From the NCBI GenBank assembly GCA_017452525.1, contig JAFTMG010000006.1:45790-109789 (forward strand): a stretch of DNA of 64,000 nucleotides. The letters are read 5' to 3'. Both the position numbers and the translations under genes were made by a program. Positions 15,080-64,000 of the stretch are shown here, one piece after another (within the stretch, counting starts at the first letter, position 1; each line of letters starts with the position of its first letter). The notes below the pieces were generated by a model. It saw only the letters and a program-made list of their open reading frames with translations, had not been told where the DNA came from and searched no databases. Source of the DNA: Clostridia bacterium (lineage in GTDB: Bacteria; Bacillota; Clostridia; Oscillospirales; CAG-272).

Positions 15080-15093
15080 ACTCACATTTTTCA

Positions 15094-15122
15094 AAAAGTG
15101 CTGTTTCAACAGCACTTTTTTG
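15094..15122 (+). terminator. intrinsic terminator
   Basis: AAAGTGCTGTT-tcaa-CAGCACTTT followed by TTTTGAATTTTT. Confidence 0.75.
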
Positions 15123-15216
15123 AATTTTTGCAGAAAACTTCCAACCTTTTTCCGCTTTTTCTTGTCTATAAGGCAGTAGCTACTGAACGAAACCCAAACG
15201 AAAACGGAGGATGAGA

Positions 15217-33478: not shown

Positions 33479-33520
33479 TCATTTTACGCGGAATTATACC
33501 TTCTTTCAAGAAAATGATTT

Positions 33521-34141: not shown

Positions 34142-34728
34142 GTCCGATTCAGCGGCTCGACCACAAGCACGCCGCCTTCGCCCACCGCCGTTACGCGGAC
34201 ATAGGTTCCGGTCGCAAGCACGGTATCGCTCAATGCAATCGCATCACATTCGGTCAGCCTTTCCTGCACGGTAATGGTGACCTTACCGCCTGCCTTACCG
34301 TCGGCGGGAATGGGAATATACACCTGACCTACCTTGCCGATGGCATTTCCCAGATCGATATTGCCGGAGGATTGCAGTCGGTATATCGCCTTCATCAAGT
34401 ATGCCATCCCGAACAGTGTGGCAACACCGAGCAAGAACGCGATCAGAATAGAAACTCCCTTGGGGAGTGCGGTCTCAAGCAGCGCCACACCGCTCCAGCC
34501 CATGATACAGAGCATGGCAACGATGCCGCGGATTGAGAACAGCCCCAGCCCGCCGTCATCGGTGTCGCCATCCATGTTATCGTCGGCATCCACGTCGGCA
34601 CCGTCTCCGCCGTCACCAAATCCGATCAGGACCATAATGGTCTGTATCAGAAGTATCAAGGTAGACGGGATGGCGATCAATGCCAGGACCTGCTGTGCGG
34701 GAACCATGGAATTCCACCAGTTTATCAT
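34138..34728 (-). CDS. NfeD-family membrane protein (flotillin-associated, OB-fold C-terminus)
   Basis: Four TM segments, an acidic loop and a C-terminal GKVTITVQERLTECDAIALS...GTYVRV OB-like domain. Confidence 0.7.
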   Translation of the reverse strand: MINWWNSMVPAQQVLALIAIPSTLILLIQTIMVLIGFGDGGDGADVDADDNMDGDTDDGGLGLFSIRGIVAMLCIMGWSGVALLETALPKGVSILIAFLLGVATLFGMAYLMKAIYRLQSSGNIDLGNAIGKVGQVYIPIPADGKAGGKVTITVQERLTECDAIALSDTVLATGTYVRVTAVGEGGVLVVEPLNRT

Positions 34729-47695: not shown

Positions 47696-49201
47696 ATGAT
47701 CCGCGCAACCGAAAAGTTTTTAAAAGAGCTCGACGTACTGAGTGAAAAACGGAGGGAGGAAATACGCAATGCCGAGGATCAAACAGAGATCCGCGGCACC
47801 GTTTACTACGTCAGCAATGCAGGCAATGACAAAAATGACGGCAAAACGCCCGAGACGGCATGGCAAACCCTTACCAAGGTTTCCGAAACAGACTTTGCCG
47901 CAGGTGACGGCGTTCTCTTCCGCAGAGGCGATCTGTTCCGCGGCTTTATCAAAACACGTCCCGGCGTGACCTATGCTGCTTACGGCAAGGGGGACAAGCC
48001 GAAATTCTACGGTTGGGACCATAGCCTTGCTGATCCCACCCTTTGGGAGCTCTGCGACACCGAGCATCACATTTGGAAGCTGAAGGAGCTGATCCTTGAC
48101 TGCGGCACCCTTGTGTTTAACGACGGCGAGGCGCATTGCCGTAAGCTGATCCCCTCCTACATTCACGGTCGCTTCGTCTGCCGCAACGATGAGGACCGCG
48201 TTTTCGACATGTCACGGGAAATGGACCGCGACCTGGACCTTGTCTGCTTCTATGAAGGAAACATGACCGATCGGCCCACCAAGGGCGAATGCTTCCCCGT
48301 CCCGGTCATGGATTCCCAAAGCTACGGAACGCTCTTCCTCCGCTGTGACCGCGGAAATCCCGCCGAGGTATTCCAAAGCATCGAGGCACTTCCGCGCCGC
48401 TCCATGATCCAGGTCGGCAGCAATGCCAACGTCACCGTGGACAATCTCTGCCTCAAATATATCGGCATCCACGCTATTGCGGCAGGTGGTTCCTGTGTCA
48501 AGGGACTTCACGTCTCCAACTGTGAGATCGGCTGGGTCGGCGGTACCGTCCAAAGCTATCTTGGGCTGGATCCAAACTATCCGCAAGGCAGACGCGGTTC
48601 CGTTACCCGATACGGTAACGGCGTTGAGATCTACGGCGGTTGCGACGACTACGTTGTATCGAACTGCTATCTGTACCAGATCTATGACGCGGGCATCACA
48701 CATCAGGTCACAACAAACGGCAAGCTGTTTGAAATGAAAAACATTCGTTATCTGAACAATCTTGTCGAATACTGCGTATATTCCATCGAATATTTTCTGG
48801 AGAAAAACGGCGGCGACACCGAAAGCTATATTGACGGATGCGAGATGAGCGGCAATATTCTGCGTTTCTCCGGCTACGGCTGGGGACAGCAGCGCCACAA
48901 CACCTATACCCCCGCTCACATCAAGGGCTGGAGCTATGAAAATACTGCCCGCAATTATTCCATCCACGACAATATTTTTGACCGCGCCGCATACCGCATG
49001 GTCCACCTCGTTGCCAAAGAGGCGGAAAGCTGCCCTGTGATGCATCACAACACCTACGTTCAGAAATTCGGACAGACGCTGGGACAGTACGGTGCCAACG
49101 CAACCGCCGAGCCTTATAATTTCTCCTTTGATGAACGTGTCAACGAGCGCATTGAGGGTGTTTTGCACGACAGCGGTGCCGAGATTTATTATCTGGATTA
49201 A
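47696..49201 (+). CDS. right-handed parallel beta-helix repeat protein (pectate-lyase-like)
   Basis: 501 aa. Repeated GxxN/NC motifs typical of beta-helix proteins. No signal peptide. Confidence 0.5.
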   Translation: MIRATEKFLKELDVLSEKRREEIRNAEDQTEIRGTVYYVSNAGNDKNDGKTPETAWQTLTKVSETDFAAGDGVLFRRGDLFRGFIKTRPGVTYAAYGKGDKPKFYGWDHSLADPTLWELCDTEHHIWKLKELILDCGTLVFNDGEAHCRKLIPSYIHGRFVCRNDEDRVFDMSREMDRDLDLVCFYEGNMTDRPTKGECFPVPVMDSQSYGTLFLRCDRGNPAEVFQSIEALPRRSMIQVGSNANVTVDNLCLKYIGIHAIAAGGSCVKGLHVSNCEIGWVGGTVQSYLGLDPNYPQGRRGSVTRYGNGVEIYGGCDDYVVSNCYLYQIYDAGITHQVTTNGKLFEMKNIRYLNNLVEYCVYSIEYFLEKNGGDTESYIDGCEMSGNILRFSGYGWGQQRHNTYTPAHIKGWSYENTARNYSIHDNIFDRAAYRMVHLVAKEAESCPVMHHNTYVQKFGQTLGQYGANATAEPYNFSFDERVNERIEGVLHDSGAEIYYLD

Positions 49202-49344
49202 CAAAATCAGCTCCTATAAACCGCAGGTCTATGGGAGCTTTTTCATTTTCTTGTTGCTTTTCCGAAATTTTATGATATAATTAGATCATAATGAAGAGTA
49301 ATTTTTCAAAATTCAGCAACAACACAAAGCAAAGGAGATATTTC

Positions 49345-51243
49345 ATGGAAAATATCAGAATTCAGGACGATCTTTACCTGCACGTCAACGGTGAGACACT
49401 TGATCAGCTGGTCATTCCCGACGATAAGCCCGTAGCGGGCGGTTTTTCGGAGCTTGCCGACGGCGTGGAAAAGATCATGATGGAAGAGTTTGAAACGATG
49501 TCTGCCAACCAATCCTACCCGAACGATTATCTCAAGAGAGCCTGCGAGCTTTACGCGATTGCCAAGAATGCCGACAGAAAGGCGCAGCACGGCATTGCCC
49601 CTGCGCTCAAAAAATTGGCGATCCTCAACGAGATCAAGGACCTTGGCGACTTCAGCCGCCTTTACAAGACCTTGTCTCTCGGAGGTATTCCCACGCCGCT
49701 TAACATCAGCGTGGACACCGATATGAAGAACACCAGGCAACACCTGGTCTACATTCAGGGTGCGGGCGTCATTCTCCCCGATGCCTCCTACTACAAGCCC
49801 GAAATGGCAGCACAGAAGGAGCAGATCCTCGGCATCTGGACCAACGTGGCAAAGGCCGTGATGGCAAACACGGATCTCTCTCCCGAGGAGCAGGAAAAAT
49901 TTGTAGCCGACGCACTCGCATTCGACGAGATCCTGGGCGGACTCGTCAAAACGAGCGAGGAATGGTCCAGATATATTGAGATGTACAATCCGATGGACGA
50001 GGAGAAGGTTGCCGAAATGCTCTCCACTCTTGATTTCAACGGCATTCTCAACGACCTCTTCGGTCACGTACCCGCAACCGTCGTTGTGACCGAGCCCAGA
50101 TTCTTCGGTGACTTCGCCAAGGTGCTGAACGCGGACACCCTCGAACTCTACAAGCACTGGGCATACGTGACCGGACTGATCAGAGCCTGCAACTTCCTCT
50201 CGGAGGAGCTTCGTGATATGGGCGGCATGTATATGCGCGCGCTGACGGGTGTTGCAAAAATGCAATCCATTGAGAAGTTTGCATATAACCTTGCATCCGG
50301 CATGTATTCCGAGCCCGTGGGCATCTATTACGGTGACAAATACTTCGGCGAGGCAGCCAAGAAGGACATCACCGAGATCGTCTACCAGATCATCGACACC
50401 TACAAGGAGCGCATCAAGACCAATGAGATTCTTGGCGAGCAGACCAAGGAAAAAGCGATCCTCAAGCTCTCCACCATGGGCGTAAAGATGGGTTACCCCG
50501 ATAAGGTGAGAGCGATTTATGACAAGCTCACCTTCTGTGCGGACGATTCGCTTCTCGACATCATGCTTTCGCTGAGCGCGATCCGCGAGCAGGAAGCATG
50601 GGCAAAGCTTGACCGTCCCACCGAGCCCGAAAACTGGCAGATGCCCGGACACATGGTCAACGCTTGCTACGATCCCTTCGTCAATGACATCACCTTCCCC
50701 GCTGCGATCCTGCAGGCGCCCTTCTATTCCTTCTCCCAGACCAGAAGCCAGAATCTCGGCGGTATCGGCGGCGTGATCGGTCATGAGATCTCTCACGCCT
50801 TTGACAGCAACGGCGCCAAGTGCGATGAAAACGGCAACATCAATGATTGGTGGACCGAGGACGACTTCAAGAGATTTGACACGAAGGTAAAGGAAATGAT
50901 CGCGCAGTTTGACGGCATTGAGCTTCCCCAGGGTAAGGTCAACGGCGCGTTTATCGTCAGCGAAAACATGGCGGACAACGGCGGCATGTCGGTCACCCTC
51001 GATATCATGTCCAAGACGGAGGGCGTTTCCTACGAGGAATACTTCACCAACTGGGCAAAAGTATGGTGCCAGAAGGCAAGACCTGAATACGCCCAGATGC
51101 TTCTCTCCGTGGACGTACACGGTCCCTGCATGCTCCGCGCCAACATGCCTCCCAGAAACTTCAAGGAGTGGTATGAGACCTTCGATGTCAAGGACACCGA
51201 TCAGATGTATCTCGCCCCCGAGAAGCGTATCGTGATCTGGTAA
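49345..51243 (+). CDS. M13 family metallopeptidase (neprilysin/PepO-like)
   Basis: HEISHAFD (HExxH) and ENMADNGG motifs. AAGGAG RBS 7 nt upstream. The longer ORF 49291 was rejected. Confidence 0.85.
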   Translation: MENIRIQDDLYLHVNGETLDQLVIPDDKPVAGGFSELADGVEKIMMEEFETMSANQSYPNDYLKRACELYAIAKNADRKAQHGIAPALKKLAILNEIKDLGDFSRLYKTLSLGGIPTPLNISVDTDMKNTRQHLVYIQGAGVILPDASYYKPEMAAQKEQILGIWTNVAKAVMANTDLSPEEQEKFVADALAFDEILGGLVKTSEEWSRYIEMYNPMDEEKVAEMLSTLDFNGILNDLFGHVPATVVVTEPRFFGDFAKVLNADTLELYKHWAYVTGLIRACNFLSEELRDMGGMYMRALTGVAKMQSIEKFAYNLASGMYSEPVGIYYGDKYFGEAAKKDITEIVYQIIDTYKERIKTNEILGEQTKEKAILKLSTMGVKMGYPDKVRAIYDKLTFCADDSLLDIMLSLSAIREQEAWAKLDRPTEPENWQMPGHMVNACYDPFVNDITFPAAILQAPFYSFSQTRSQNLGGIGGVIGHEISHAFDSNGAKCDENGNINDWWTEDDFKRFDTKVKEMIAQFDGIELPQGKVNGAFIVSENMADNGGMSVTLDIMSKTEGVSYEEYFTNWAKVWCQKARPEYAQMLLSVDVHGPCMLRANMPPRNFKEWYETFDVKDTDQMYLAPEKRIVIW

Positions 51244-51296
51244 TTCCCTAAAAAGCAGTGTCTGCCGCAAGAAGACAGACATCTCTTACAACCCAA

Positions 51297-51332
51297 AAAG
51301 ACAGAGAAATTTCACTTTCTCTGTCTTTTTCT
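51297..51332 (+). terminator. bidirectional intrinsic terminator (M13 peptidase and his operon, convergent)
   Basis: AAAGACAGAGAAA-tttcac-TTTCTCTGTCTTTTTCTTG. Confidence 0.75.
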
Positions 51333-51384
51333 TGTCCCGATCTGCGCGGCGGCAGATTACGGGAGAGGGATATTCTCATCCGGT

Positions 51385-52041
51385 TTATTGGGTCATTTTT
51401 TCTTGCTTGACCTTATGATCGATCACGTGGCGAGAAGCGAGCTCGTTGTGAATATCCTCCAGCGTGATACCCATCTGGATCATCATGACCATGACGTGAT
51501 AGGTCAGATCGGAGATCTCGTAGATCGTTTCCTTTTTATCGTCTGCCTTGCCCGCGATGATGACCTCAGTACACTCCTCGCCCACCTTTTTAAGGATCTT
51601 ATCGATTCCCTTTTCAAACAGATAGGTGGTGTACGAGCCTTCCTTCTTCTCGGTCTTTCTGCCCTCGATCAGTTTCATCAAGCCCTCCAGCGAGAAGATG
51701 CCTGCCGCTTCCTCGGCATTTTCGTAGATCACTTCGTTGAAGCAGGAGTCGGTACCCGTGTGGCAAGCGGGACCGTCCTTGCGCACCTCTACGGTCAGCG
51801 CGTCGCGGTCGCAATCGGCAGTGATGCGCACGATATGCTGGTAGTTCCCGCTGGTTTCTCCTTTGAGCCACAATTCCTGACGGGAACGGCTCCAGAAGCA
51901 GGTCAAGCCCTTCTCCAAGGAGATCTTCAGGCTTTCACGGTTCATATAGGCAACGGTCAACACCTTCTTGCTCTCAGCATCCACCACAACGGCGGGGATC
52001 AGACCGTTTTCGTCAAATTTCAAAGTTTCAATATCAAACAT
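51385..52041 (-). CDS. hisIE: bifunctional phosphoribosyl-AMP cyclohydrolase / phosphoribosyl-ATP diphosphatase
   Basis: HisI region CFWSRSRQELWLKGETSGN. HisE C-terminus. Confidence 0.9.
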   Translation of the reverse strand: MFDIETLKFDENGLIPAVVVDAESKKVLTVAYMNRESLKISLEKGLTCFWSRSRQELWLKGETSGNYQHIVRITADCDRDALTVEVRKDGPACHTGTDSCFNEVIYENAEEAAGIFSLEGLMKLIEGRKTEKKEGSYTTYLFEKGIDKILKKVGEECTEVIIAGKADDKKETIYEISDLTYHVMVMMIQMGITLEDIHNELASRHVIDHKVKQEKMTQ

Positions 52042-52071
52042 AGTATGCGGTAACCTTTCTTGGTTGAAATC

Positions 52072-53097
52072 TTATTGAGGAAGATCCAGTTGGATTTTAT
52101 GATTTTCGATCAGCGGCACCATGCCGGATTGTGTCCAGTCGGGCTCGACGTCATATACCCACGAGGTGCTCGATCCTTCGATCGCGATCTCGCCCTTCTC
52201 GGTGACCGTGACAATGGCAGAGAGCGGATCGGTGAAAAACCACGTATTCTTTGCCTGCTTCATGGTATTCAGAGGCAAATTCCGGGGCGCCCCCGCGGGC
52301 TTGCCGTCGGCATCATAATCTTGAAAACCGTACGTCATATCTTCCGTGTAATGGAAATCGGGATGGGGCTTCCAACCGCCATTGTGAACAACGTTGACGT
52401 CCCAATAAGCAATATGATCTATTACTGCGAAATGATCCGTATGAAGATGGCCGTTTGCCACAAGCAGGACCGTGCCGTGATATGCGTTGAAAATGGCTCT
52501 CGCCTCTGCCGCGTCGGGAATGGGAGACCATTGCGGGGACAGTGAAGCATGGGTGAACACAAGCACCTTTTTGCCCTGCTTTGCCGCATCCGCCACAGTT
52601 GTATTCAGCCACGCCAATTGATCCGGACCGAGGCTGTTCCACTTTCCATTCTCACGGGCAGGACAGTGGCTGCCGTCGAGATTGCGCTCCCACGCGCCAT
52701 CGGAGCGGAGGGAGTAATTGGTATCCAGACCGATCAAACGGAAATTTCCGATATCCGTCGACCAATAACCGATGCGGTCGCCCTCCGGTCTGGATACGGG
52801 GCGGTTGCAGAGATGGGCATTAACGAAAGCCATCTTGTTTCCCGTCTCCAGCTCATGGTTTCCGTATACACCGTAAACAGGCAAGCCGTAGGGATTGTTC
52901 ACGTAAAGATCGACCACTTCGGGAGAGCCGGCGTAATCGTTGCTGAAGTCTCCCATATGGATCACAAAGTCAGCGTCTGCGTCTGCAGCTCGTTTGAGAA
53001 TGGCTTCCAGCGAGGAAACCGGTGGTATATACATCCCCTTTTTATAGTGATAATCGGCTAACACTGCAAATTTCAGCACAGTTTTCCCTCCAATCAC
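52072..53097 (-). CDS. calcineurin-like metallophosphoesterase embedded in the his operon (candidate histidinol-phosphate phosphatase)
   Basis: DxH (LADYHY), GDFSND, GNHE and GHLH metal-binding motifs. Cytoplasmic. The GTG at 53097 overlaps the hisF stop (GTGA). An alternative GTG at 53079 has GGAGGG 6 nt upstream. Confidence 0.75.
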   Translation of the reverse strand: MIGGKTVLKFAVLADYHYKKGMYIPPVSSLEAILKRAADADADFVIHMGDFSNDYAGSPEVVDLYVNNPYGLPVYGVYGNHELETGNKMAFVNAHLCNRPVSRPEGDRIGYWSTDIGNFRLIGLDTNYSLRSDGAWERNLDGSHCPARENGKWNSLGPDQLAWLNTTVADAAKQGKKVLVFTHASLSPQWSPIPDAAEARAIFNAYHGTVLLVANGHLHTDHFAVIDHIAYWDVNVVHNGGWKPHPDFHYTEDMTYGFQDYDADGKPAGAPRNLPLNTMKQAKNTWFFTDPLSAIVTVTEKGEIAIEGSSTSWVYDVEPDWTQSGMVPLIENHKIQLDLPQ

Positions 53098-53852
53098 AAC
53101 CGAACGTTGATCCCGTTGTTTCTGAGCTCTTGCTTCAGATCCTTAATGGCAACCTCGCCAAAATGGAAGATCGAAGCGGCAAGCCCCGCATCCACACCGG
53201 GAAGCGTTTTGAACAGCTTGGTAAAATCATCGATGCATCCCGCACCGCCCGAGGCGATCACGGGAACCTTCACCACGCGACAGACGGCATCCAGCATTTC
53301 CAGATCAAAGCCCTGCTTCACGCCGTCCGTATCCATCGAATTGAGCACGACCTCTCCCGCACCCATGCCGACGCAACGGCGGATCCACTCGATCGCCTCC
53401 ATGCCCGTATTCTCCCTGCCCCCTTTGGCGAAGACACGGAAAACACCGTCCACACGGCGCACGTCAGCAGAAATGACCACACATTGGTCGCCGTATTTCT
53501 TTGCCGCCTCTTCGATCAGCTTAGGATTGCGGATCGCGCCCGAATTGACGCTGACCTTATCGGCACCGCATTTCAGCACGCGGTCAAAATCCTCAACGGT
53601 GTTGATGCCGCCGCCAACGGTGAGCGGGATGAATATGGTACTTGCGACCTCGCGAAGCACGTCGGTAAAAAGCGCACGTCCTTCGGCGGACGCGGTGATA
53701 TCATAAAACACCAGCTCATCCGCACCGTTTTCGCTGTAGTATTTCGCCAGCGAAACGGGTGAGGAAACGTCGGCAAGATTCAAAAAATTAACACCCTTGA
53801 CAACACGCCCGTTCTTAACGTCGAGACAAGGAATGATTCTCTTGGTGATCAT
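53094..53852 (-). CDS. hisF: imidazole glycerol phosphate synthase, cyclase subunit
   Basis: HisF (beta/alpha)8 barrel. N-terminus KRIIPCLDVKNGRVVKG. Confidence 0.9.
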   Translation of the reverse strand: MITKRIIPCLDVKNGRVVKGVNFLNLADVSSPVSLAKYYSENGADELVFYDITASAEGRALFTDVLREVASTIFIPLTVGGGINTVEDFDRVLKCGADKVSVNSGAIRNPKLIEEAAKKYGDQCVVISADVRRVDGVFRVFAKGGRENTGMEAIEWIRRCVGMGAGEVVLNSMDTDGVKQGFDLEMLDAVCRVVKVPVIASGGAGCIDDFTKLFKTLPGVDAGLAASIFHFGEVAIKDLKQELRNNGINVRL

Positions 53853-54565
53853 ACGCTTGCCTCCTTGATTGCCTGTGCGAGATCGATCGCGCCGGTATAG
53901 TAAGCCTTGCCGATGATGGCACCGTAAAGCTTTTGTGCGCGCAACGCGCGAATATCCTCCATACTCGACACGCCGCCCGAGGCAATAAAATGAATGGAAT
54001 ACCGAGCCGAAAGAGACGCATACAGCGCGCGATTCGTTCCCTGCATTGCCCCGTCACGGGAGATATCGGTCACGATCATCGTCTTGACGCCGATCTCCTG
54101 CATGCGAGCGCAAAAGTCATCGCAGGTCAGTGCGGATTTTTCGGTCCAGCCTTTGATGGCAACCATACCATCCTTGATATCGGCACCGACGGCAATGGCA
54201 TCGCCAAACTCGGCAACAGCCTGCTCCACAAAGCCCTTCTCCGTTACCGCCGCCGTGCCGAGAATGACACGGTTAACACCAATGGTCCGGTATGCCCGAA
54301 TGGTCTCCATCGAACGGATGCCTCCACCTAACTCCACAAACAAATTTGTGTTTTGAACGATCTTTTCAATGGTCTTCAGATTGGGTGTCGTGCCGTACCG
54401 TGCACCCTCCAGGTCGACCATATGCAGATATTTTGCGCCTGCCGCCTCGAATTTCCGTGCGACATTCAGCGGATCTTGATCGTAGACGGTCATTTGTGCG
54501 TAATCGCCCTTATAGAGGCGCACCGCCTGACCTTCATACAAATCGATAGCGGGAAAAATATTCAT
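53849..54565 (-). CDS. hisA: ProFAR isomerase
   Basis: N-terminus IFPAIDL. Barrel homologous to HisF. Confidence 0.9.
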   Translation of the reverse strand: MNIFPAIDLYEGQAVRLYKGDYAQMTVYDQDPLNVARKFEAAGAKYLHMVDLEGARYGTTPNLKTIEKIVQNTNLFVELGGGIRSMETIRAYRTIGVNRVILGTAAVTEKGFVEQAVAEFGDAIAVGADIKDGMVAIKGWTEKSALTCDDFCARMQEIGVKTMIVTDISRDGAMQGTNRALYASLSARYSIHFIASGGVSSMEDIRALRAQKLYGAIIGKAYYTGAIDLAQAIKEASV

Positions 54566-54566
54566 C

Positions 54567-55184
54567 TCAGAAACCTCCTTCGCAAAACGCGCGCAGGATG
54601 TTCAAGCCCACGTCTCCGCTCTTTTCGGGATGAAATTGGCAACCGCATACGTTGCCGTTTGCCACCGCGGCAGTCAACTCTGCACCGTATTCGGCGGTAG
54701 CGATCACGCTCTCCTCACAGTCGGCGGCATAATAGGAGTGGACGAAATAAACGCAGTCCCCCTCCTGCAGATAGCGGAACAGTCCGTGCTTTTCCGCACC
54801 GAAATGAAGCGCGTTCCAGCCGATATGGGGGATCTTCAGATCCCCGGGGATCACGTCGGCGATCGGACGGACCGTGCCGCGGATCAGTCCCAGTCCCTTA
54901 TGCTCACCGTACTCCAGACTTTTCTCAAACAGCATCTGCATGCCGAGGCAAATCCCCATGATCGGCTTTCCCGCGGCGGCCTCCGCCCGCAGAACTTCAT
55001 CCAATCCGCTCTCGCGCAACTTGGCTGCGGCATCCTCAAACGCGCCGACACCGGGCAGAATGATCTTGTCGGCACGGCGGAGCTCATCGGCATCCCCCGT
55101 CACGATCACGTCGGCACCGATGGTCTCAAGGGAAGAACGGAGGGAAAAGAGATTGCCGACACCGTAATCAACAACAGCGATCAT
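54567..55184 (-). CDS. hisH: imidazole glycerol phosphate synthase, glutamine amidotransferase subunit
   Basis: GATase class I: GICLGMQ catalytic cysteine motif and a HPEKS histidine motif. Confidence 0.9.
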   Translation of the reverse strand: MIAVVDYGVGNLFSLRSSLETIGADVIVTGDADELRRADKIILPGVGAFEDAAAKLRESGLDEVLRAEAAAGKPIMGICLGMQMLFEKSLEYGEHKGLGLIRGTVRPIADVIPGDLKIPHIGWNALHFGAEKHGLFRYLQEGDCVYFVHSYYAADCEESVIATAEYGAELTAAVANGNVCGCQFHPEKSGDVGLNILRAFCEGGF

Positions 55185-55771
55185 TACAGCACTCCTTTGG
55201 TGGAGGGGATCTCATCAGCATAGGCGGCATCGATCGCCACCGCGGCGCGCAAAGCGCGGGCAACCGCCTTGAAGGTACCCTCAATGATATGATGGGAATT
55301 GGTGCCTGCCAATTGGCGGATATGGAGCGTCAGCCCCGCACGGCGCGTCAGTCCCTGATAGAATTCCTCTGTCAGCTCGGTATCAAAGGTACCGACCTTT
55401 TCGGTTGGGATCTCCAACCCGTAGCAAAGGCAAGGTCTGCCGGAAATATCCACCGCGGCAAGGATCAACGCCTCATCCATGGGAAGCGTGATATCTCCGT
55501 AACGGACGATACCTCTCTTTTCACCCAATGCCTGCGCAAAGGCATCGCCCAGCGCGATTCCGATATCTTCCACTGTGTGATGGTCGTCCACGTCGGTATC
55601 TCCATGGCAGGTGACATCCAGATCAAATCTGCCATGCTTGGCAAAGAGCGTCAGCATATGATTCAGAAAACCGCAGCCGGTATCGACGTGAGATACACCG
55701 CTGCCATCCAGATCGATGGTGAGGCAAATATCCGTTTCTGCCGTCTTTCTCTTGATTTCAGCCTTTCTCAT
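55184..55771 (-). CDS. hisB: imidazoleglycerol-phosphate dehydratase (monofunctional)
   Basis: 195 aa. The IGPD histidine-rich motifs are present. No HAD phosphatase domain. Confidence 0.9.
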   Translation of the reverse strand: MRKAEIKRKTAETDICLTIDLDGSGVSHVDTGCGFLNHMLTLFAKHGRFDLDVTCHGDTDVDDHHTVEDIGIALGDAFAQALGEKRGIVRYGDITLPMDEALILAAVDISGRPCLCYGLEIPTEKVGTFDTELTEEFYQGLTRRAGLTLHIRQLAGTNSHHIIEGTFKAVARALRAAVAIDAAYADEIPSTKGVL

Positions 55772-55789
55772 ATCAAAAAGCTCCTTTTC

Positions 55790-56851
55790 TTATTCTCCGA
55801 GAATTTCTTTCACGGCGCACAACAGCGCATCCATGTCAGAACGGGTACCGATGGTGATTCGGTTAAAGTTCGAGATGCGGGGCTTGTCAAAGTGGCGGAC
55901 CAATACGCCGCGCGCCTTCAGCTGACGGTACAGCTCCCCACCCTCGATCCGATCACTCTCGGCAAAAATGAAGTTGGCGCTGGAAGGAAGCACGCGGAAG
56001 CCCAGCTTTTTCAGCTCCGTCACCGTATATTCTCTGGTCGCCATAATCTCGCGGCAGCATGCGCGGGTATATTCCTCGGCGTCTACCGTTGCCGCGCCCG
56101 CGATCTGCGTCAGGCGGTTGATATTATAGGGGTTGGTAGAGTATTTGATCAGTTCCAGATCGGCGATCAGTGCGGCATCGGCAATGGCAAAGCCGAGGCG
56201 CGCGCCCGCCATGGAACGGGACTTGGAAAAGGTCTGCACCACCAGCAGATTCGGGTAACGGTGGATCAGCGGCACGCAACTCTGCCCGCCGAAATCCACG
56301 TATGCTTCATCGATCAACACCACCTGATCGGGGTTGGTCTGCAGGATCTCTTCGATCTGAGACAAAGAGAGCGTCATGCCCGTGGGGGCGTTGGGGTTGG
56401 CGATCACGATCATCCCATCCCGATGGCAGTACTCTCGGTGATCGATCGAAAAATCCTCGCAAAGCGGCACGCGGGTGGCGGGAATGCCGTAAAGATCGGC
56501 GAAGACCTGATAAAAACCGTAGCTGATCTCCGGGAAGATCGCACCGTGCTCGCGGTCACAGAGCGCCATAAAAGCAAAATTCAGAATGTCATCCGAGCCG
56601 TTGGCAAGATAAACGTTTTCCTTTTTCACGCCGTAAAGGGCGGCAAGCTTTTCCCTCAGGACGGTACATTCGGGGTCGGAATAAAGGCGGAGCTTTTCCA
56701 CCTCAGCGCGATTCACCGCGTCCACCACCGAAGGCGCGGGCGGATAGGGGGATTCGTTGGTATTCAGCTTGATATATTGCATGTCCCGCGGCTGTTCGCC
56801 CGGTACGTATGCCTCGAGATCCCGGTAGGCAGCATTGAGGAAACGGCTCAT
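55790..56851 (-). CDS. hisC: histidinol-phosphate aminotransferase
   Basis: Class II aminotransferase. PLP lysine region SKSRSMAGARLG. Confidence 0.9.
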   Translation of the reverse strand: MSRFLNAAYRDLEAYVPGEQPRDMQYIKLNTNESPYPPAPSVVDAVNRAEVEKLRLYSDPECTVLREKLAALYGVKKENVYLANGSDDILNFAFMALCDREHGAIFPEISYGFYQVFADLYGIPATRVPLCEDFSIDHREYCHRDGMIVIANPNAPTGMTLSLSQIEEILQTNPDQVVLIDEAYVDFGGQSCVPLIHRYPNLLVVQTFSKSRSMAGARLGFAIADAALIADLELIKYSTNPYNINRLTQIAGAATVDAEEYTRACCREIMATREYTVTELKKLGFRVLPSSANFIFAESDRIEGGELYRQLKARGVLVRHFDKPRISNFNRITIGTRSDMDALLCAVKEILGE

Positions 56852-58134
56852 TGGTCACGGTCCTCCTCAAGTCTTGCGGTAGCGCTTCTCGCGTGGGCAC
56901 CAAGTCCCTCTTTTTCGGCAAAGTAGGCAACCTTTTCTGCCACCTTAGCAAGCGCATCCCGCGTGTAATAGGTGTATTGCGTCTTCTTAACGAAATCATC
57001 CACCGACAGGGGGCTGGAAAAACGCGCGGTGCCGCTGGTGGGCAAGGTATGATTAGGGCCTGCAAAATAGTCGCCCAGCGCCTCGGGACAGTTGCGCCCC
57101 ATGAAGATCGACCCCGCATGGCGGATGGCGTCCAGATAATCGAAGGGATTGTCCACGCAAAGCTCGAGATGCTCGGGCGCGATCTCGTTGGCGATCTCGA
57201 TGGCACGCATCAGATCGTCTGCTACGATGATCTTGCCGTTGTTGTCGATCGACGCGCGGGCGATCTCGGCGCGCGGAAGCAGAGGGATCTGTCGCTCCAG
57301 CTCTGCTGAAACGGCATCTGCCAGAGCCTCGCTGTCCGTCACCAGCACGGCGCTTGCCAGCTTATCGTGCTCTGCCTGAGAAAGCAGATCCGCCGCAACC
57401 ACACGCGCGTTGCTCTTCCCGTCTGCCACCACCAGAATCTCGGAGGGACCCGCGATCATATCGATGGAAACGGTGCCGTATACCTGCTTTTTTGCCTCGG
57501 CAACAAATGCGTTTCCGGGGCCAACGATCTTATCCACCTTAGGTACGGATGCCGTGCCGTATGCCAGCGCGGCGATCGCCTGTGCGCCGCCGACCTTGAA
57601 AATGCGGTCGACGCCCGCCACATATGCGGCTGCAAGAATTACGGGATTGACCTTACCCTCGGCATTGGGAGGAGTGGTGATCACCAATTCTCCGCAACCG
57701 GCGATCTTGGCGGGAATGCTGTCCATCAGTACCGTAGAGGGGTACGCTGCCGTGCCGCCCGGCACGTAAAGACCTGCCCTTTCCATAGGGATGATCTTCT
57801 GTCCGATGACGATGCCGTCCTTTTCGTTGATGATAAAGCTGTTGCGCACCTGCTTCTCGTGAAACGCGCGGATATTTGCCGCCGCCTCACGCAGGATCTC
57901 CAAAAACTCCGGCTCCACCAAGGTAAGCGCTTCTTCGATCTCGGCGGGGGTGACCTCAAGAGAGGTCAGCTTGGCATGATCGAACTTTTCACAATAGTAG
58001 TACAGTGCCTCGTCTCCCCGTGCGCGAACATCGGCAATGATATCCGCCGCGATCTGCTCCACATTGACTGCGGGCTCCACACGGGCGAAGATCTGATCAT
58101 GAGAGACCTCGCCGTATTTGTATATAGAAATCAT
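56848..58134 (-). CDS. hisD: histidinol dehydrogenase
   Basis: 428 aa. The family signature is present. Confidence 0.9.
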   Translation of the reverse strand: MISIYKYGEVSHDQIFARVEPAVNVEQIAADIIADVRARGDEALYYYCEKFDHAKLTSLEVTPAEIEEALTLVEPEFLEILREAAANIRAFHEKQVRNSFIINEKDGIVIGQKIIPMERAGLYVPGGTAAYPSTVLMDSIPAKIAGCGELVITTPPNAEGKVNPVILAAAYVAGVDRIFKVGGAQAIAALAYGTASVPKVDKIVGPGNAFVAEAKKQVYGTVSIDMIAGPSEILVVADGKSNARVVAADLLSQAEHDKLASAVLVTDSEALADAVSAELERQIPLLPRAEIARASIDNNGKIIVADDLMRAIEIANEIAPEHLELCVDNPFDYLDAIRHAGSIFMGRNCPEALGDYFAGPNHTLPTSGTARFSSPLSVDDFVKKTQYTYYTRDALAKVAEKVAYFAEKEGLGAHARSATARLEEDRDQ

Positions 58135-58148
58135 ATCATTATCCTTCC

Positions 58149-58808
58149 TTATTTTGCGGCTTGCTTTTCCGCCACCTCAGCGGCGATCCCGGCGGCGATC
58201 CCGGCGGTGATCGCTTCGATCGCCTCGGTCTTGAACTTAAAGCTGGATTTATTGGCGATCAGACGGGCGCTGATGGGCACCACCGTCTCGAACGGGACCA
58301 GATCATTCTCCAAGAGCGTCGTTCCCGTCTCGACAATATCCACGATCACGTCGGAGAGCCCCAGGATCGGCGCGATCTCAATGGAGCCGTTCAGATGAAT
58401 AATGTCGATATCACGTCCGAGTCCGTGATAATAGTTCCGCGCAATGTTGGAAAACTTGGTTGCCACACGCAACGTCGTCTCCGGGTCATCACGGAAATCC
58501 TTTTTGGCGGCTACCGCCATGCGGCATTTTCCGATATCCAGATCCAGCAGTTCATACACGTCCGGCTCATATTCCAGCAAAATGTCTTTTCCGGCAACGC
58601 CGATATCCGCCGCGCCACGTTCTACATAAATGGATACGTCGCTCGGTTTGACCCAAAAATAGCGAATACCCACCTCTTCATTCTCGAAAATCAACTTTCT
58701 GTTGTTTTCATGGATAGACGGACATTCATATCCTGCCTTTTCAAACATGGCAAGAACCTTCTCGCCAAGTCTCCCCTTGGGAAGTGCGACATTGATCATC
58801 GTCTTCAT
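58149..58808 (-). CDS. hisG: ATP phosphoribosyltransferase, short form
   Basis: 219 aa. HisG catalytic core. HisZ is encoded upstream. The C-terminal AGIAAGIAAE is encoded by a 12-nt tandem repeat. Confidence 0.9.
   Translation of the reverse strand: MKTMINVALPKGRLGEKVLAMFEKAGYECPSIHENNRKLIFENEEVGIRYFWVKPSDVSIYVERGAADIGVAGKDILLEYEPDVYELLDLDIGKCRMAVAAKKDFRDDPETTLRVATKFSNIARNYYHGLGRDIDIIHLNGSIEIAPILGLSDVIVDIVETGTTLLENDLVPFETVVPISARLIANKSSFKFKTEAIEAITAGIAAGIAAEVAEKQAAK
58182..58214 (-). repeat. 12-nt tandem repeat (GGCGATCCCGGC, about 2.7 copies) at the 3' end of hisG
   Basis: Direct reading of the sequence. In frame, encoding AGIA repeats. Confidence 0.8.
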
Positions 58809-59917
58809 TTTTCTTCACCTCCCGCGGAAAAGCGAACGATCTCGCCAAAACGCATCTGTGTCGGGATCTCGCGCTGCAGAAGAACGCTTTTTCCCTGTTT
58901 GTTCCACTCGCTCACCGCGGCACTCAGTGCCGTGGGATCGTCCTCATCACGATACAAACAAAGCACGTCGGCATCGTAGTCTCTCTTTTCACGATGCAGT
59001 CGCTCCAAAAGATCCAGATAGACGGCGAAGCCAACGGCACCGCCCTGCTTACCCATTTTCCGAAGCAATCTGTCGTACCTGCCGCCGATCAGTACAGCGG
59101 AAGGAATGCCGTCCACAAAGCCTTGGAACACGATACCGCTGTAATAGTGAATATCGTGAACCACGGAAAAGTCCAGACGGATCTGCGAGGAAAAGCCGTT
59201 ACTTGCCAGCACCTCGGCGATCATGGTCAGCTCGCAGAGCGCAGACTCTACCGGCAGATCGGCACACAGCGCCTGCAACGCGGGCAGGATCTCACCGATC
59301 GGACCGTAGGTTCGGATCAGCTGCAACAGGCGATCGCATGCCACGTCGTCTACACCGTTGGAAAGGCAGATCGCGCGGGCGCCGTGGGTATTTTTCTCGC
59401 CGAGTGCCGCCAGCAGATCGTTTTGTGCGTCGGCAGGCAAATGCATCTCCTCCATCATAGCACCGACGATTCCCATATGAGAAACGTCCAGCACAAAATC
59501 CGCGCTGATCTTTTGAAGGCTCTGCGCCGCCAAAAGCATCACATCACAGAGCTGCATCACATCCAGATCACCGATGCATTCCAGACCTGCCTGCATCAAC
59601 TCCTCAAACGCGTGGGTGCTGCGTGAGATGCGGTAAACGTTTTCGTTGTAATAAACCTTCTGCACACACCCTTTTTGCCATTTCGCGTTCTTCACGATGG
59701 AAAGTGTCACGTCAGGCTTCAACGCCATCAGCTTACCGTTGGTATCGGTAAAGGTGATCACGCTGTCGGACACCAGAAAATCCTTATTTTTGCTGTAAAG
59801 ATCGTATTCCTCGAATTTGCCCATCTTAAAACGAGTGTATCCGTGAAGCCGATACAGCTCGCGCAAATCGTAGATCATACGCTCATCGTATTTCAATACC
59901 TGCTCATTGAGCGTCAT
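58805..59917 (-). CDS. hisZ: ATP phosphoribosyltransferase regulatory subunit
   Basis: HisRS-like catalytic-domain paralog without an anticodon-binding domain. Overlaps hisG by 4 nt. Confidence 0.85.
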   Translation of the reverse strand: MTLNEQVLKYDERMIYDLRELYRLHGYTRFKMGKFEEYDLYSKNKDFLVSDSVITFTDTNGKLMALKPDVTLSIVKNAKWQKGCVQKVYYNENVYRISRSTHAFEELMQAGLECIGDLDVMQLCDVMLLAAQSLQKISADFVLDVSHMGIVGAMMEEMHLPADAQNDLLAALGEKNTHGARAICLSNGVDDVACDRLLQLIRTYGPIGEILPALQALCADLPVESALCELTMIAEVLASNGFSSQIRLDFSVVHDIHYYSGIVFQGFVDGIPSAVLIGGRYDRLLRKMGKQGGAVGFAVYLDLLERLHREKRDYDADVLCLYRDEDDPTALSAAVSEWNKQGKSVLLQREIPTQMRFGEIVRFSAGGEEK

Positions 59918-60207
59918 GACTGTTCCTCCTTCAGGCGCTTCATCACCAATTGATAGCCGTCACTGCCATATTGCAGGCACTTGTTGACACGGCTGATCGT
60001 TGCCGTGCTGGCACCGGTCTCCTTAGAAATCTCGGTATAGATCTTCCCTTCCGTCAGCATACAAGCCACGTCAAAGCGCTGTGCCAGATCAAGGATCTCA
60101 TTGACGGTACAAACGTCCTCGAAAAACTGAAAACATTCCTCGCGGGTCTTTAAGGTCAAAATGGCATCAAACAGCCGCTCGACCGATTTCACATGCAATT
60201 TATCCAT
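59914..60207 (-). CDS. YerC/YecD-family TrpR-like DNA-binding protein (candidate his operon regulator)
   Basis: 97 aa. TrpR-like HTH TEISKETGASTATISRVNKCLQYG. First gene of the operon, overlapping hisZ by 4 nt. Confidence 0.75.
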   Translation of the reverse strand: MDKLHVKSVERLFDAILTLKTREECFQFFEDVCTVNEILDLAQRFDVACMLTEGKIYTEISKETGASTATISRVNKCLQYGSDGYQLVMKRLKEEQS

Positions 60208-60256
60208 GGTCGTCCTTTCCTTGCGGTAACGTATATTTTTTACAATATAATGATAT

Positions 60257-60285
60257 ATTTTACCACTTTAGCGAGATAAAGTCAA
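60257..60285 (-). promoter_or_regulatory. his operon promoter, with a TATATT-N6-AATATA palindrome at 60232-60249 in the short leader
   Basis: Minus strand: TTGACT, 17-nt spacer, TAAAAT. The inverted repeat lies at about +1 to +20. AAGGAAAGG RBS. Confidence 0.55.
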
Positions 60286-60423
60286 TAGCAAAAATGCAGT
60301 TATTTCATCTTTTTTTACAAATTGAGAAACACTTGGAACTCCGTGCTCTTCATAGGAATATCCGCCCTCTTTTTTGTCCATCCTACTATATGAAAAAATG
60401 AAAAAGAAAGTGATATTTTCCTT

Positions 60424-60879
60424 ATGCTTCCATCCTTCAACCCACCGGATATTCTTCCGCTTCCGCCTCACTGGACCGTTCGCCTCTCCCGCTCGCTTTT
60501 TGTTTTCTCATCCGGCGGTGCGCTCTACTTTTTTATCGAGATCCTATGGCGCGGATACTCTCATTTCAGTATGTTTTTGTGCGGCGGTCTGTGTTTCTCG
60601 GGTATATATCTGATCCACCGTATATGCTGTGCGGTACCGCGCCCGCTCCGTTGGCTTTACGGAGCAGTATTGATCACCGTGGTCGAATTTTGGTGCGGTG
60701 TGATCGTCAACCTCCTGTTGGGCTGGAACGTCTGGAATTATACTGCGCTCCCTCTCAATCTTCTCGGTCAGGTCTGTCTTCCCTTCACGCTCATATGGTT
60801 TCTGCTCTGCATCCCCGCAGATATGATATGCGGTCTCTTTTGCCGCCTGTTTCGTATAGAATTGCCGCAAAAATACTAA
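60424..60879 (+). CDS. small polytopic membrane protein (possibly DUF1113 / putative ABC-transporter type IV-like)
   Basis: Four predicted TM helices. No clear RBS, so the start is uncertain. Confidence 0.4.
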   Translation: MLPSFNPPDILPLPPHWTVRLSRSLFVFSSGGALYFFIEILWRGYSHFSMFLCGGLCFSGIYLIHRICCAVPRPLRWLYGAVLITVVEFWCGVIVNLLLGWNVWNYTALPLNLLGQVCLPFTLIWFLLCIPADMICGLFCRLFRIELPQKY

Positions 60880-60885
60880 AAACCG

Positions 60886-60923
60886 TGGGGCTGAGGCACC
60901 GATTCAGTGCCTCAGCCCCTTAT
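60886..60923 (+). terminator. bidirectional intrinsic terminator
   Basis: GGGGCTGAGGCAC-cgattca-GTGCCTCAGCCCC followed by TTATTT. Confidence 0.75.
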
Positions 60924-60934
60924 TTCACGATAAC

Positions 60935-63900
60935 TTACTGTTTTTTGCGGGCGATCATCTTGAGAGCGGCGGCAGCCAGCGCGGCGGTAGCAACCGCGCC
61001 TGCCACACGCTTGCCTGTGCGAATGGTCTTGCCATGCTTTTGCACAAACTCGTGTCTTGCGGCGGCCTTCTTCTCTTCCTTGCGCACCTCGCCATCCAGA
61101 GTCAGCGGGCGCTGATCACCAAGCAGCTCACCCGGTGTCGGTACGGATTGAGCGGTCAGCTTAACGGAGGTACCCGTAATGGTGGGACGGTATACGTAAA
61201 CGATCGAACGGTCCTCATGCACGTCTGCGCCTTTGGCAAACAGACCGAAATTATACTGCGCACGGGAAATGATCTCATTACCACACAAAAGTTCCAAACG
61301 GCGCGCGCTCTTCGATCCGTCCACCACTTCCTTCTCAATGCGGAAAAGGTTTACGCCCTCGGTCAGCGCCGTACCGAAACGGAGATTGAAATCCTCTGCC
61401 GTCATAGGCGAATCGGGCGGGCAGATCCACAGTACCGCGCAGGATCTGGGCGGAATCACAATACCGCTCAGAGACTGTGTGCGGCTCTCGGTGGGTGCTT
61501 TACCCGTTGCGGACCAAAGACGCAGGGTGTATCCGTTCAGATCCTGCACTCTGTTGGAGGCATTGTACAGCTCCACAAAACGGTAAGCATTGGAAATACT
61601 CTCTCCATCGTCCGAAACATACGCGGCGGTGGCAGGAAGGATCTCCGAGATCATCACCGGCGTCAGCACACTGAAATCGGTGTCACAATAGGTCTTGCCG
61701 TCGATCTTTGCCGTAACGATCACCGTCACACGGCGCATGCCTGCCAGATCGGGCAAAGTGCGAACGACCGTTTTCTCCGCGCCGGCCATCATGTTCTTCA
61801 GATGTACCGTCTCATAGGGCTTGCATCTGGTCAGATCAGGACCGCCCACGCCGGTCAGATAATAGCGGAGGCATACGTCAGTCATGATCGACTCGGAACG
61901 GTTGGTGAAGCGAACAGACAGACTGTTGGAGCGATAGTCCTGATCGTTGGTTCCCAGCATCATCTCCGAAATTGCCAGCTTGCCGTTCTCTGCCCCATCG
62001 ATCCAGACGGGTGCCGAAACGGTGTACGTCTTATTGTTCAGGATCTTTACATAGTAATAATCATAATGCGGCGGCAGGGTCAGCTTCCATTCATAGGACT
62101 GGCGCGCACCCACATCCACGCAGGCGACGACCATATTGTCCTCGGCGATCAGCTGGATCATGCCGATACCGGTCTCATTTTCGGTCTCCAGACGGATGTG
62201 GAACTCCAGCTTTTCGGGATCCTGCAGATGAGAGCCGAGCCACTCACCGTTCACGGTGTAATACAGCTTCAGCGTCGGGTCTCCTGTGGTATACGCCCGC
62301 CGCGCGTGGAATGCCTCCAGCACGTTATCACGGGTCAGTGCGGGAGCAAGCACAACACCGGTAGACGCGGTTGCGGTTGTCCAGTTAATGCCGTGATTGT
62401 CCTCGTTGAAAACAGGTGCCGTATGCCAGCCGACGTGAAGCGAATTGCTGTATTCGCGGTCAAAGCCGGCACCCTTGATCTCATTGAGCATCATTCGCGC
62501 GTCGATCTCCTCATCCCAATGGGCAAATTCATCGAAATTGCCCCAGGAAAGCATGGGATGATTGAACATACCGATCGACTTGGGATCCGCCTTCAGCTTA
62601 TCGTACATCTCGGGAAGGCTGACGTTACTGATATCGTGCTCGATCCAATCGGTATTCAGAACGTTCATATGTCCCCAAAGACCGTTCTCGCCGTTATAGG
62701 TCATCTCCCACCCGTAGATGGAAGCAAAGCGCCCCGGCTCATCGTAACGGTCGGAGATCTCGATCTGCTTTTCGTAGACCTCTTTACCAATGTGGTGGGA
62801 ATGGTCGGTCACCGCGAAATAATCGACACCGCCGATATCACGCGCATACTCGATGGCGGAGGCGGGATCAAGCGCACCGTCGGAATCGCCCGTATGGGAA
62901 TGGACCTCGCCGCGGTAGCAATACATTTCCATCGGATCTGCCACCGTAAAGGCGATCTTGCGGTAGGTCTTGTTCCCCAGACAGTCGCGAATGAAAATCT
63001 CATAATGATGAGCACCGACCTTCAGCGCCTTTTGCGGCGTATACGTCACGCTCTTGGTGGTCCACTTTGCCTTAGCCGTTACCTCCTTGCCGTCCACGCA
63101 AAGGATACCCGATTCCGGCTCGACACCGGAAATATCCTCATAGCAGATGCGGAAGGTGGGCGTGGTGTTCAAAGAACCGTAGCCCTCGGAGGGGTATACG
63201 GACGAGAGGCAGGGTCCTTCATTATCCATAACGTGAGTGGTAAGGCAGGAGTCCGAATTACCGAACAGACCTTCGCGGAAACTGCCATCCACCGTGATAT
63301 AATACTGAAGATTGGGCGTTTTTCTCAAGAAAGCATGAGGAACGGTGGCACTCCAAACGTTTTCCTCTTCCGTAGGATACGCGAGGATCTCTTCAAAGCG
63401 CTCATCGGGAAGCAACACGTGGAGCTTCGCGCCGCACGCAGCCGCGCCCGAAACGGCAAAGCGGACCGTCAGATCGCCGTCTGCCAGATAGCAGGTCTCG
63501 GTATTCCCCAGCGGAATGACCGAAGGAACGTCCGTTTCATTCAGGTCAGGGATACTCTGCCCGTAGTCCAGCTTACCGGGCGACATGCGGACGTGGTGTG
63601 CCAGATTCACACCCACCTCGGGACGGCGAACGTCGATCTTCCAGGCGGAAGAGAAGCGAACGGGCGTATCCAGATGATACGGAACCCCGTTATATACCAA
63701 ACGGTAAACAGCGCTGTCATACGAGCCGCCGCGCGGCGCGATCAGCAGGGTGATGGCGCTGTATTTGATAGACAGCTCAAAGGAATTGACTCTCGGCTCC
63801 CACACACCGCTCTCCTCATTGAGACGCCCCAGCTCCAGCGGGATGATCTTCATATTTTCGGGAGAGTACGTCTCATTCGGTGCGTAAACGATCTCGCTGA

Positions 63901-64000
63901 GTGCCTCACAAAACGCCTCATTTGTCAGATAAGGCTCATTTTCAGCCTCGTGAAGCGTGTGGGGAATAAAGCGAAGGACCGCCACCTCACCGGGAGAAAG
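60935..64000 (-). CDS. large surface-anchored PHP-domain metallohydrolase (CehA/McbA-like) with a lamin-tail domain and a C-terminal TM anchor; 5' end probably beyond the window
   Basis: PHP motifs HSHTGDSDG and DYFAVTDHSHH. LTD-like ISEILPATAAY...RFVELYN. C-terminal AGAVATAALAAAAL-KMIARKKQ. The frame is open to the window end, and the codon at 63985 is GTG with no signal peptide after it. Confidence 0.65.
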   Translation of the reverse strand, partial: LSPGEVAVLRFIPHTLHEAENEPYLTNEAFCEALSEIVYAPNETYSPENMKIIPLELGRLNEESGVWEPRVNSFELSIKYSAITLLIAPRGGSYDSAVYRLVYNGVPYHLDTPVRFSSAWKIDVRRPEVGVNLAHHVRMSPGKLDYGQSIPDLNETDVPSVIPLGNTETCYLADGDLTVRFAVSGAAACGAKLHVLLPDERFEEILAYPTEEENVWSATVPHAFLRKTPNLQYYITVDGSFREGLFGNSDSCLTTHVMDNEGPCLSSVYPSEGYGSLNTTPTFRICYEDISGVEPESGILCVDGKEVTAKAKWTTKSVTYTPQKALKVGAHHYEIFIRDCLGNKTYRKIAFTVADPMEMYCYRGEVHSHTGDSDGALDPASAIEYARDIGGVDYFAVTDHSHHIGKEVYEKQIEISDRYDEPGRFASIYGWEMTYNGENGLWGHMNVLNTDWIEHDISNVSLPEMYDKLKADPKSIGMFNHPMLSWGNFDEFAHWDEEIDARMMLNEIKGAGFDREYSNSLHVGWHTAPVFNEDNHGINWTTATASTGVVLAPALTRDNVLEAFHARRAYTTGDPTLKLYYTVNGEWLGSHLQDPEKLEFHIRLETENETGIGMIQLIAEDNMVVACVDVGARQSYEWKLTLPPHYDYYYVKILNNKTYTVSAPVWIDGAENGKLAISEMMLGTNDQDYRSNSLSVRFTNRSESIMTDVCLRYYLTGVGGPDLTRCKPYETVHLKNMMAGAEKTVVRTLPDLAGMRRVTVIVTAKIDGKTYCDTDFSVLTPVMISEILPATAAYVSDDGESISNAYRFVELYNASNRVQDLNGYTLRLWSATGKAPTESRTQSLSGIVIPPRSCAVLWICPPDSPMTAEDFNLRFGTALTEGVNLFRIEKEVVDGSKSARRLELLCGNEIISRAQYNFGLFAKGADVHEDRSIVYVYRPTITGTSVKLTAQSVPTPGELLGDQRPLTLDGEVRKEEKKAAARHEFVQKHGKTIRTGKRVAGAVATAALAAAALKMIARKKQ

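Follow-up and report, generated by a model that had tools for sequence, protein, structure and literature searches.

Histidinol-phosphate phosphatase (HolPase; EC 3.1.3.15) catalyzes the one step of histidine synthesis that has undergone repeated replacement, and enzymes of three superfamilies (HAD, PHP and IMPase) are known to carry it out (PMC9798254, PMC10804674, PMC12220765). It has yet to be identified in 42 of 208 prototroph genomes (20%), the largest gap left in automated amino-acid pathway reconstruction (GapMind 2026 preprint, bioRxiv 10.1101/2024.10.14.618325). Such gaps translate into false auxotrophy predictions for gut and environmental microbes. In Nitrosopumilus maritimus, an organism without an annotated HolPase, an uncharacterized hydrolase gene inside the his cluster (Nmar_1556/nmHisN) proved to encode a new HolPase type (PMC10804674). 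The 64-kb stretch of Clostridia bacterium DNA analyzed here (contig JAFTMG010000006.1; hereafter the window) presents a comparable arrangement, as its histidine operon encodes every step of the pathway except HolPase and includes, between hisF and hisIE, a gene for an uncharacterized calcineurin-like metallophosphoesterase (MPP). We regard this MPP as a candidate supplier of HolPase activity in its lineage, with a probability of about 0.45. Unlike nmHisN, which belongs to the already HolPase-containing HAD superfamily and whose activity was shown in vitro, the MPP is a sequence-based candidate, and its superfamily would be new to this reaction; literature searches that combined HolPase with the metallophosphoesterase or calcineurin-like superfamily turned up no earlier claim of this kind.

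The operon comprises eleven genes, all on the minus strand and separated by short intergenic gaps throughout, in the order yerC-hisZGDCBHAF-MPP-hisIE:

59914–60207, minus strand: open reading frame (ORF) for a TrpR/YerC-like small regulator, first gene of the operon; its orthologue in the related contig L004 carries PF01371 Trp_repressor
58805–59917, minus strand: hisZ, regulatory subunit of ATP phosphoribosyltransferase; best match TIGR00443 (E = 1.5e-61, 208 bits, below the curated cutoff of 271.65)
58149–58808, minus strand: hisG, short form; TIGR00070, 195.6 bits (cutoff 75.75)
56848–58134, minus strand: hisD, histidinol dehydrogenase; TIGR00069, 558.8 bits
55790–56851, minus strand: hisC, histidinol-phosphate aminotransferase, which makes the substrate proposed for the MPP; TIGR01141, 303.9 bits (cutoff 276.55)
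55184–55771, minus strand: hisB, monofunctional imidazoleglycerol-phosphate dehydratase of 195 residues; NF002109, 286.8 bits
54567–55184, minus strand: hisH; TIGR01855, 226.5 bits
53849–54565, minus strand: hisA; TIGR00007, 268.7 bits
53094–53852, minus strand: hisF; TIGR00735, 332.3 bits, with a TGA stop at 53096–53094
52072–53079, minus strand: MPP gene, 335 residues from a probable GTG start (341 for the longest ORF, which runs to 53097)
51385–52041, minus strand: hisIE, bifunctional, last gene of the operon; NF002747, 260.4 bits

Eight of the nine his genes reach or exceed their NCBIfam equivalog cutoffs, the exception being hisZ. Because hisB aligns solely to positions 167–355 of the bifunctional HisB model NF003937, it lacks the HAD phosphatase domain; NCBIfam thus confirms what a first-pass annotation of this DNA, made from the sequence alone, had concluded about both the missing step and the 195-residue dehydratase. 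The same annotation had noted that neither HisJ/HisK nor HisN is encoded in the operon, and this negative result now extends to the whole window: a Pfam sweep of its called ORFs returned no PHP-HisJ, HAD or IMPase protein, and tblastn searches with 14 HisJ proteins from relatives detected no hisJ-like sequence. Following hisIE, hisJ is absent both from the window and from the related contigs L002, L003 and L005, where a convergent gene occupies the place instead (in the window, an M13-peptidase gene at 49291–51243 on the plus strand, beyond the end of the operon); no HolPase was found in the 3–7 kb downstream of hisIE in these three contigs.

The significance of this absence emerges from comparison with 80 gut and rumen clostridial metagenome-assembled genomes (MAGs), whose HisIE proteins are 77–85% identical to that of the window, among the matches listed in a scan of species-representative genomes. 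Nearly all of these relatives share the same his gene order, many of them also carrying a YerC-like gene 5' of hisZ, and their hisF–hisIE spacing is usually 10–30 nucleotides (nt). Of these loci, 75 are long enough to be counted for hisJ, and in 40 of the 75 the last gene of the operon encodes a protein of about 250–270 residues and begins no more than about 70 nt from the end of hisIE, mostly at its stop codon (for example, L015:10648–11463, L022:10648–11394 and L034:10648–11430). Six scanned representatives of this terminal gene match the HisJ-family PHP model TIGR01856 with 112–126 bits (cutoff 90.2), so that a HolPase gene is a regular member of the operon in this clade. On a poorly resolved neighbour-joining (NJ) tree of concatenated His proteins the presence of hisJ is patchy, a distribution that would fit repeated loss or relocation of the gene.

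If the candidate assignment is correct, the MPP would catalyze the same reaction as HisJ/HisK (TIGR01856; B. subtilis HisJ, L. lactis HisK), with which it would also share a place in the same operon, metal dependence, a monofunctional architecture and a cytoplasmic location. The folds are unrelated, as the PHP enzymes are (β/α)7 barrels with three metals whereas the MPP has a predicted β-sandwich that would hold two; moreover, the window protein lacks a sequence match to any HisJ model, and its gene is located between hisF and hisIE whereas hisJ comes after hisIE.

Membership of the protein in the calcineurin-like metallophosphoesterase superfamily is supported by profile, motif and fold alike. 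Its residues 8–220 match positions 1–190/191 of Pfam Metallophos PF00149 with E = 8.9e-13 and 49.5 bits (cutoff 21.5), and the characteristic motifs, numbered from the start at 53079, are present as D9-x-H11, G43-D44-x-x-N47-D48, G73-N74-H75-E76, H177 and G210-H211-x-H213. Within a family alignment (A1) of 68 members, D9, H11, G43, D44, N47, G73, N74, H75, H177, G210, H211 and H213 are invariant in all 68, while E76, present in the window protein, is conserved in at least 90%; Y12, R114, D119, W236 and Y244 are also invariant. The four motifs reported at first pass (DxH, GDxxD, GNHE and GHxH) are therefore intact, with the correction that the second reads GDFSND, that is, GDxxND instead of a strict GDxxD. 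An AlphaFold2 model (predicted local distance difference test, pLDDT, 97.1; predicted template-modelling score, pTM, 0.94) has the typical four-layer α/β-β/α sandwich of MPPs, in which an N-terminal dimetal core (residues ~1–235) is followed by a β-rich C-terminal extension (~240–335). The protein carries no signal peptide and opens directly with strand β1; its predicted location is cytoplasmic, in agreement with the initial description.

Scans of the MPP against Pfam and NCBIfam list no PHP/HisJ, HAD or Inositol_P family, and with the predicted MPP fold this sets the protein apart from PHP-, HAD- and IMPase-type HolPases. All of its NCBIfam matches fall far below the respective cutoffs (acc_ester, 20.8 versus 148 bits; YaeI, 14 versus 188; YfcE, 12 versus 56), and by curated cutoffs it is not a family-level member of the ADPRibase-Mn, CpdA-Icc or GpdQ phosphodiesterases. 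The nearest solved structures, those of ADPRibase-Mn (zebrafish; 2nxf), Lmo2642, GpdQ, SMPDL3 and Rv0805, are only 12–19% identical to it. ADPRibase-Mn and the class III phosphodiesterases, which act on diesters or pyrophosphate bonds, have another genomic context and, judging from alignment lengths, appear to lack in that form the extra C-terminal β-rich extension of ~95 residues. The predicted fold fixes the superfamily firmly, yet it cannot separate a monoesterase from a diesterase.

The junction between hisF and the MPP gene differs from what the first-pass annotation had proposed, namely a 341-residue protein whose GTG start overlaps the hisF stop codon and couples the two genes in translation. 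Five of six related contigs have TAA as the hisF stop codon, which allows no GTG at the overlap position, and in those five the MPP starts at an ATG 18–21 nt downstream with a GGAGG-type ribosome-binding site ahead of it; a site of this type is found at the equivalent place in four of the six (L002, L004, L094 and L096). The window itself has the corresponding element:

53086–53091, minus strand: Shine-Dalgarno sequence GGAGGG, 6 nt 5' of GTG 53079

The true start is thus most likely GTG 53079, giving a protein of 335 residues, and 341 residues holds as the length of the longest ORF; the GTGA overlap start at 53097 was dropped as probably an artefact of the longest-ORF choice. With this start, the MPP gene begins 18 nt past hisF on the same strand and with its own ribosome-binding site. 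Co-transcription with the his genes remains the natural reading of this layout, while translational coupling through an overlap loses its support. On the other side, hisIE starts exactly 30 nt past the MPP stop codon, as had been noted, and its ribosome-binding site AAGAAAGG and spacer are conserved in relatives.

The association of the MPP with histidine genes is old and has been maintained. A protein search recovered 296 homologues at E ≤ 1e-5, the contexts of which were read where their flanks allowed. The family is a small one, as an exhaustive profile search of 1.84 billion representatives yielded only 165 clusters at E ≤ 1e-30. All homologues of at least 75% identity with readable surroundings adjoin hisF, hisIE or both (L002–L005 and L094–L096); the order hisF-MPP-hisIE is preserved in full on five of these contigs (L002–L005 and L094), and L095 and L096 each extend to just one flank. 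A more distant homologue (P0017, 62% identical, on a 1.3-kb contig) also sits between the C-terminus of HisF and the N-terminus of HisIE, and an NJ tree places it as sister to the core his-linked clade (bootstrap 66%; core clade, 100%). Altogether, association with his genes was seen in nine contexts, every one of them in the MPP branch of at least 62% identity; the arrangement is thus a stable trait confined to a single group of uncultured gut Clostridia.

Synonymous divergence (dS) between the window and the related contigs ranges from 0.65 to more than 2, with saturated synonymous sites, which indicates that these contigs come from distinct species. The ratio of nonsynonymous divergence (dN) to dS is 0.07–0.08 for the MPP where computable, against 0.01–0.06 for the his genes, and its dN of 0.13–0.18 is similar to that of hisZ. 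Saturated dS together with a low dN/dS implies that the MPP has been kept functional across species; as judged from these sequences, it has long been retained under purifying selection, less constrained than the core pathway enzymes. Its G+C content by codon position matches that of the neighboring his genes, so that it is not a recent foreign insertion.

How the MPP came to lie in the operon can be outlined as follows. The ancestral operon of this clostridial group would have ended in a PHP-type hisJ, which would then have left the operon in the window lineage, and a member of the small, carbohydrate-associated MPP family, whose members are probably fairly unspecific hydrolases of small phospho-alcohols, would have become fixed between hisF and hisIE. 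From that position, production of the MPP would keep pace with that of HisC, the source of histidinol phosphate, and of HisD, for which histidinol is the substrate. By analogy with the superfamily, D9, H11, D44, N74, H177, H211 and H213 would hold two metal ions that activate water for attack on the phosphomonoester, while H75 of the GNHE motif would protonate the leaving histidinol. Outside the operon, no synteny links the window to any of the 80 listed relatives, and for this reason the pre-insertion state cannot be reconstructed.

Within this framework, it falls a little short of an even chance that the operon captured a fairly unspecific small-molecule phosphatase that provides HolPase activity, with or without a second HolPase encoded elsewhere. 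That the MPP is the only HolPase of the lineage, having displaced hisJ, is a more doubtful proposition. It would make the protein the first HolPase of the MPP superfamily, and a fourth independent invention of the activity, drawn from a carbohydrate-linked phosphoesterase family with hardly any change in conserved residues. The original proposal of a non-orthologous, MPP-fold HolPase accordingly draws strength from an intact active site, the placement of the gene, the selection acting on it and the missing hisJ, and is weakened by the distribution of the gene and by the carbohydrate-linked homologues. The first-pass annotation had named absence of the gene from the his operons of close relatives as an outcome that would speak against it; what is found is divided, in that none of the 80 listed relatives has the MPP, yet the arrangement is kept both in the window's own clade and in P0017.

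Several observations weigh against a role as HolPase, and most of them suit instead a gene that inserted by chance at the hisF–hisIE junction in an ancestor of the lineage and has since been carried on the his transcript, keeping its family function (probably sugar-phosphate or phosphodiester hydrolysis) while HolPase is encoded elsewhere. Besides the absence of the MPP from all 80 listed operons, both hisJ and the MPP are missing from the adjoining 10 kb (less at contig ends) in 35 of the 75 scorable relatives; HolPase must be encoded elsewhere in these, so that a stand-alone enzyme is common among relatives, and the same may hold for the window lineage, whose sister group on the weakly resolved NJ tree also lacks both genes. 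Unrelated same-strand genes have entered relatives' his operons as well (L025 and L009), twice at the very hisF–hisIE junction (L063 and L064). Phosphodiesterases and pyrophosphatases make up most of the nearest solved structures. No his gene occurs in the flanks of any homologue of 60% identity or less (more than 50 loci, some with very short flanks), and homologues at 52–60% identity have carbohydrate contexts: the MPP gene of P0019 lies downstream of a GH13 gene, that of P0021 after a Gfo/Idh/MocA oxidoreductase gene, and that of P0020 in a group with AraC, arabinofuranosidase (GH51) and GDPD genes, while P0036 has AraC and GH4 as neighbors; P0062 neighbors an AMP-binding enzyme and a kinase-like protein. 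Some family members of 380–400 residues bear lipoprotein signal peptides (such as P0025, P0031, P0044 and P0117), and many among P0121–P0208 (e.g., P0139 and P0138) are C-terminal domains of proteins of 750–2000 residues, in one case alongside a GH16 module and in another alongside a dockerin. Just four positions (F7L, H132R, G139C and L273M) distinguish the core his-linked clade from other members, and not one is exclusive to both his-linked lineages, so that altered specificity is not clearly indicated; H132R, considered as a specificity marker, was dropped because non-his P0019 has Arg and his-linked P0017 has His. We give this chance insertion a substantial probability, albeit below one half. 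Several facts sit poorly with it: a phosphoesterase is exactly the missing chemistry and would be rare among random passengers, the arrangement has outlived synonymous saturation, down to 62% identity and with a dN/dS of 0.07–0.08, the lineage lacks the hisJ that 40 of the 75 relatives have in this operon, and control by histidine supply would be odd for a carbohydrate enzyme.

Stable membership in the operon argues for a functional tie to histidine synthesis, and such a tie could also take the form of hydrolysis of another phosphorylated or pyrophosphate-linked pathway compound, or of a nucleotide signal; clean-up of a by-product or surplus intermediate, such as nucleotides derived from phosphoribosyl pyrophosphate (PRPP) or from aminoimidazole carboxamide ribonucleotide (AICAR/ZMP), ADP-ribose-like compounds or imidazole-acetol phosphate, would be an example. 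This is improbable, since the pathway has no known need of such a step, its pyrophosphatase reaction is already covered by HisIE, the 80 listed related operons work without such a gene, and the structural likeness stays at superfamily level (12–19% identity) and says little about substrate. HolPase activity of the MPP stands as a well-founded and cheaply testable candidate rather than a finding.

The wider subfamily frames this candidate. Other members share 46–62% full-length identity with the window MPP, as well as its invariant residues and C-terminal extension, and differ from it in being carbohydrate-linked, in bearing lipoprotein signals or in forming part of fusions with GH16, dockerin or large surface proteins, with his operons appearing only at 62% identity and above. 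As a whole, the MPP family is associated with carbohydrate use and some of it is extracellular; the cytoplasmic, his-linked branch is derived from within it. We know of no characterized member of this subfamily.

Should the MPP prove to be a HolPase, it would add a fourth superfamily to those carrying out this reaction, supply a search model for some of the remaining pathway gaps and, as sister lineages still carry hisJ, offer a clean natural case of an operon gene displaced by a non-orthologous one. Displacements of this sort are already familiar, and the system as such would not be new in type. Should it be a passenger, the locus would serve as a warning that operon membership alone is no proof of function, given that unrelated genes do enter his operons.

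The limits of the transcription unit are hinted at by two sequence elements:

60257–60285, minus strand: best sigma-70-like promoter match, TTGACT-17-TAAAAT with extended TG, about 50 nt 5' of yerC (consensus match only); probable operon promoter
51259–51281, minus strand: terminator-like hairpin with T-run, about 100 nt past the hisIE stop (consensus match only); probable operon end

Promoter- and terminator-like sites are no commoner here than in shuffled sequence, so that these only hint at the operon ends; none is present at the hisF/MPP or MPP/hisIE junctions, and an Rfam search over 50800–61000 returned no riboswitch, T-box or leader RNA.

Just upstream of the operon, at 60935–63985 on the minus strand, lies the gene for a 1016-residue LTD (lamin-tail domain) protein, in which a weak DUF3604 match spans a PHP-like HSHT stretch. 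Its size, its lamin-tail domain, its hydrophobic C-terminal anchor and the weakness of the DUF3604 match led to its rejection as a HolPase candidate, and the earlier dismissal of this large PHP protein at the end of the window is upheld; a 77%-identical homologue occupies the same place in L004. On the other side of the operon, a 501-residue protein without a Pfam family is encoded at 47696–49201 on the plus strand, and L002, L003 and L005 have homologues 75–76% identical to it downstream of their operons. Elsewhere in the window, the ORFs at 1576–2400, 2453–4147, 13997–15247 and 32768–34728 gave no Pfam match (threshold E ≤ 1e-5 in some scans, E ≤ 0.01 in others).

The his operons of the relatives display further variation. 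The genes at the hisF/hisIE junction of L063 (8652–10001) and L064 (7437–8089) encode small predicted membrane proteins, on the same strand and without a Pfam family; another such same-strand gene is found between hisA and hisF in L009 (8697–9198), and a same-strand MFS transporter gene lies between hisC and hisB in L025 (6035–7300). In two Christensenellaceae MAGs without hisJ (L044:10659–11312 and L060:10653–11294), a PAP2-type membrane phosphatase is encoded 5–11 nt past hisIE on the same strand, its best NCBIfam matches being undecaprenyl-diphosphatases, below cutoff; it represents another phosphatase family attached to a hisJ-less his operon. A further MAG without hisJ (L068:10665–11459) has, 17 nt past hisIE, a gene for a 264-residue protein with an HxHxDH motif, which suggests a metallo-β-lactamase fold; the protein has only faint RNase Z-like matches. 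In L042, a noncoding element of ~330 nt occurs twice in one his operon, in the hisH–hisA (7216–7553) and hisF–hisIE (9513–9847) spacers; the two copies are 85–90% identical, contain an internal 44-nt palindrome, have no Rfam match and look like a small mobile or repetitive extragenic palindromic (REP)-like repeat. Finally, two opposite-strand genes of 373 and 266 codons separate hisD from hisC in L081 (2717–6236), the first apparently encoding an AAA-type ATPase as judged by eye, and may constitute a small defence or abortive-infection pair that splits the operon.

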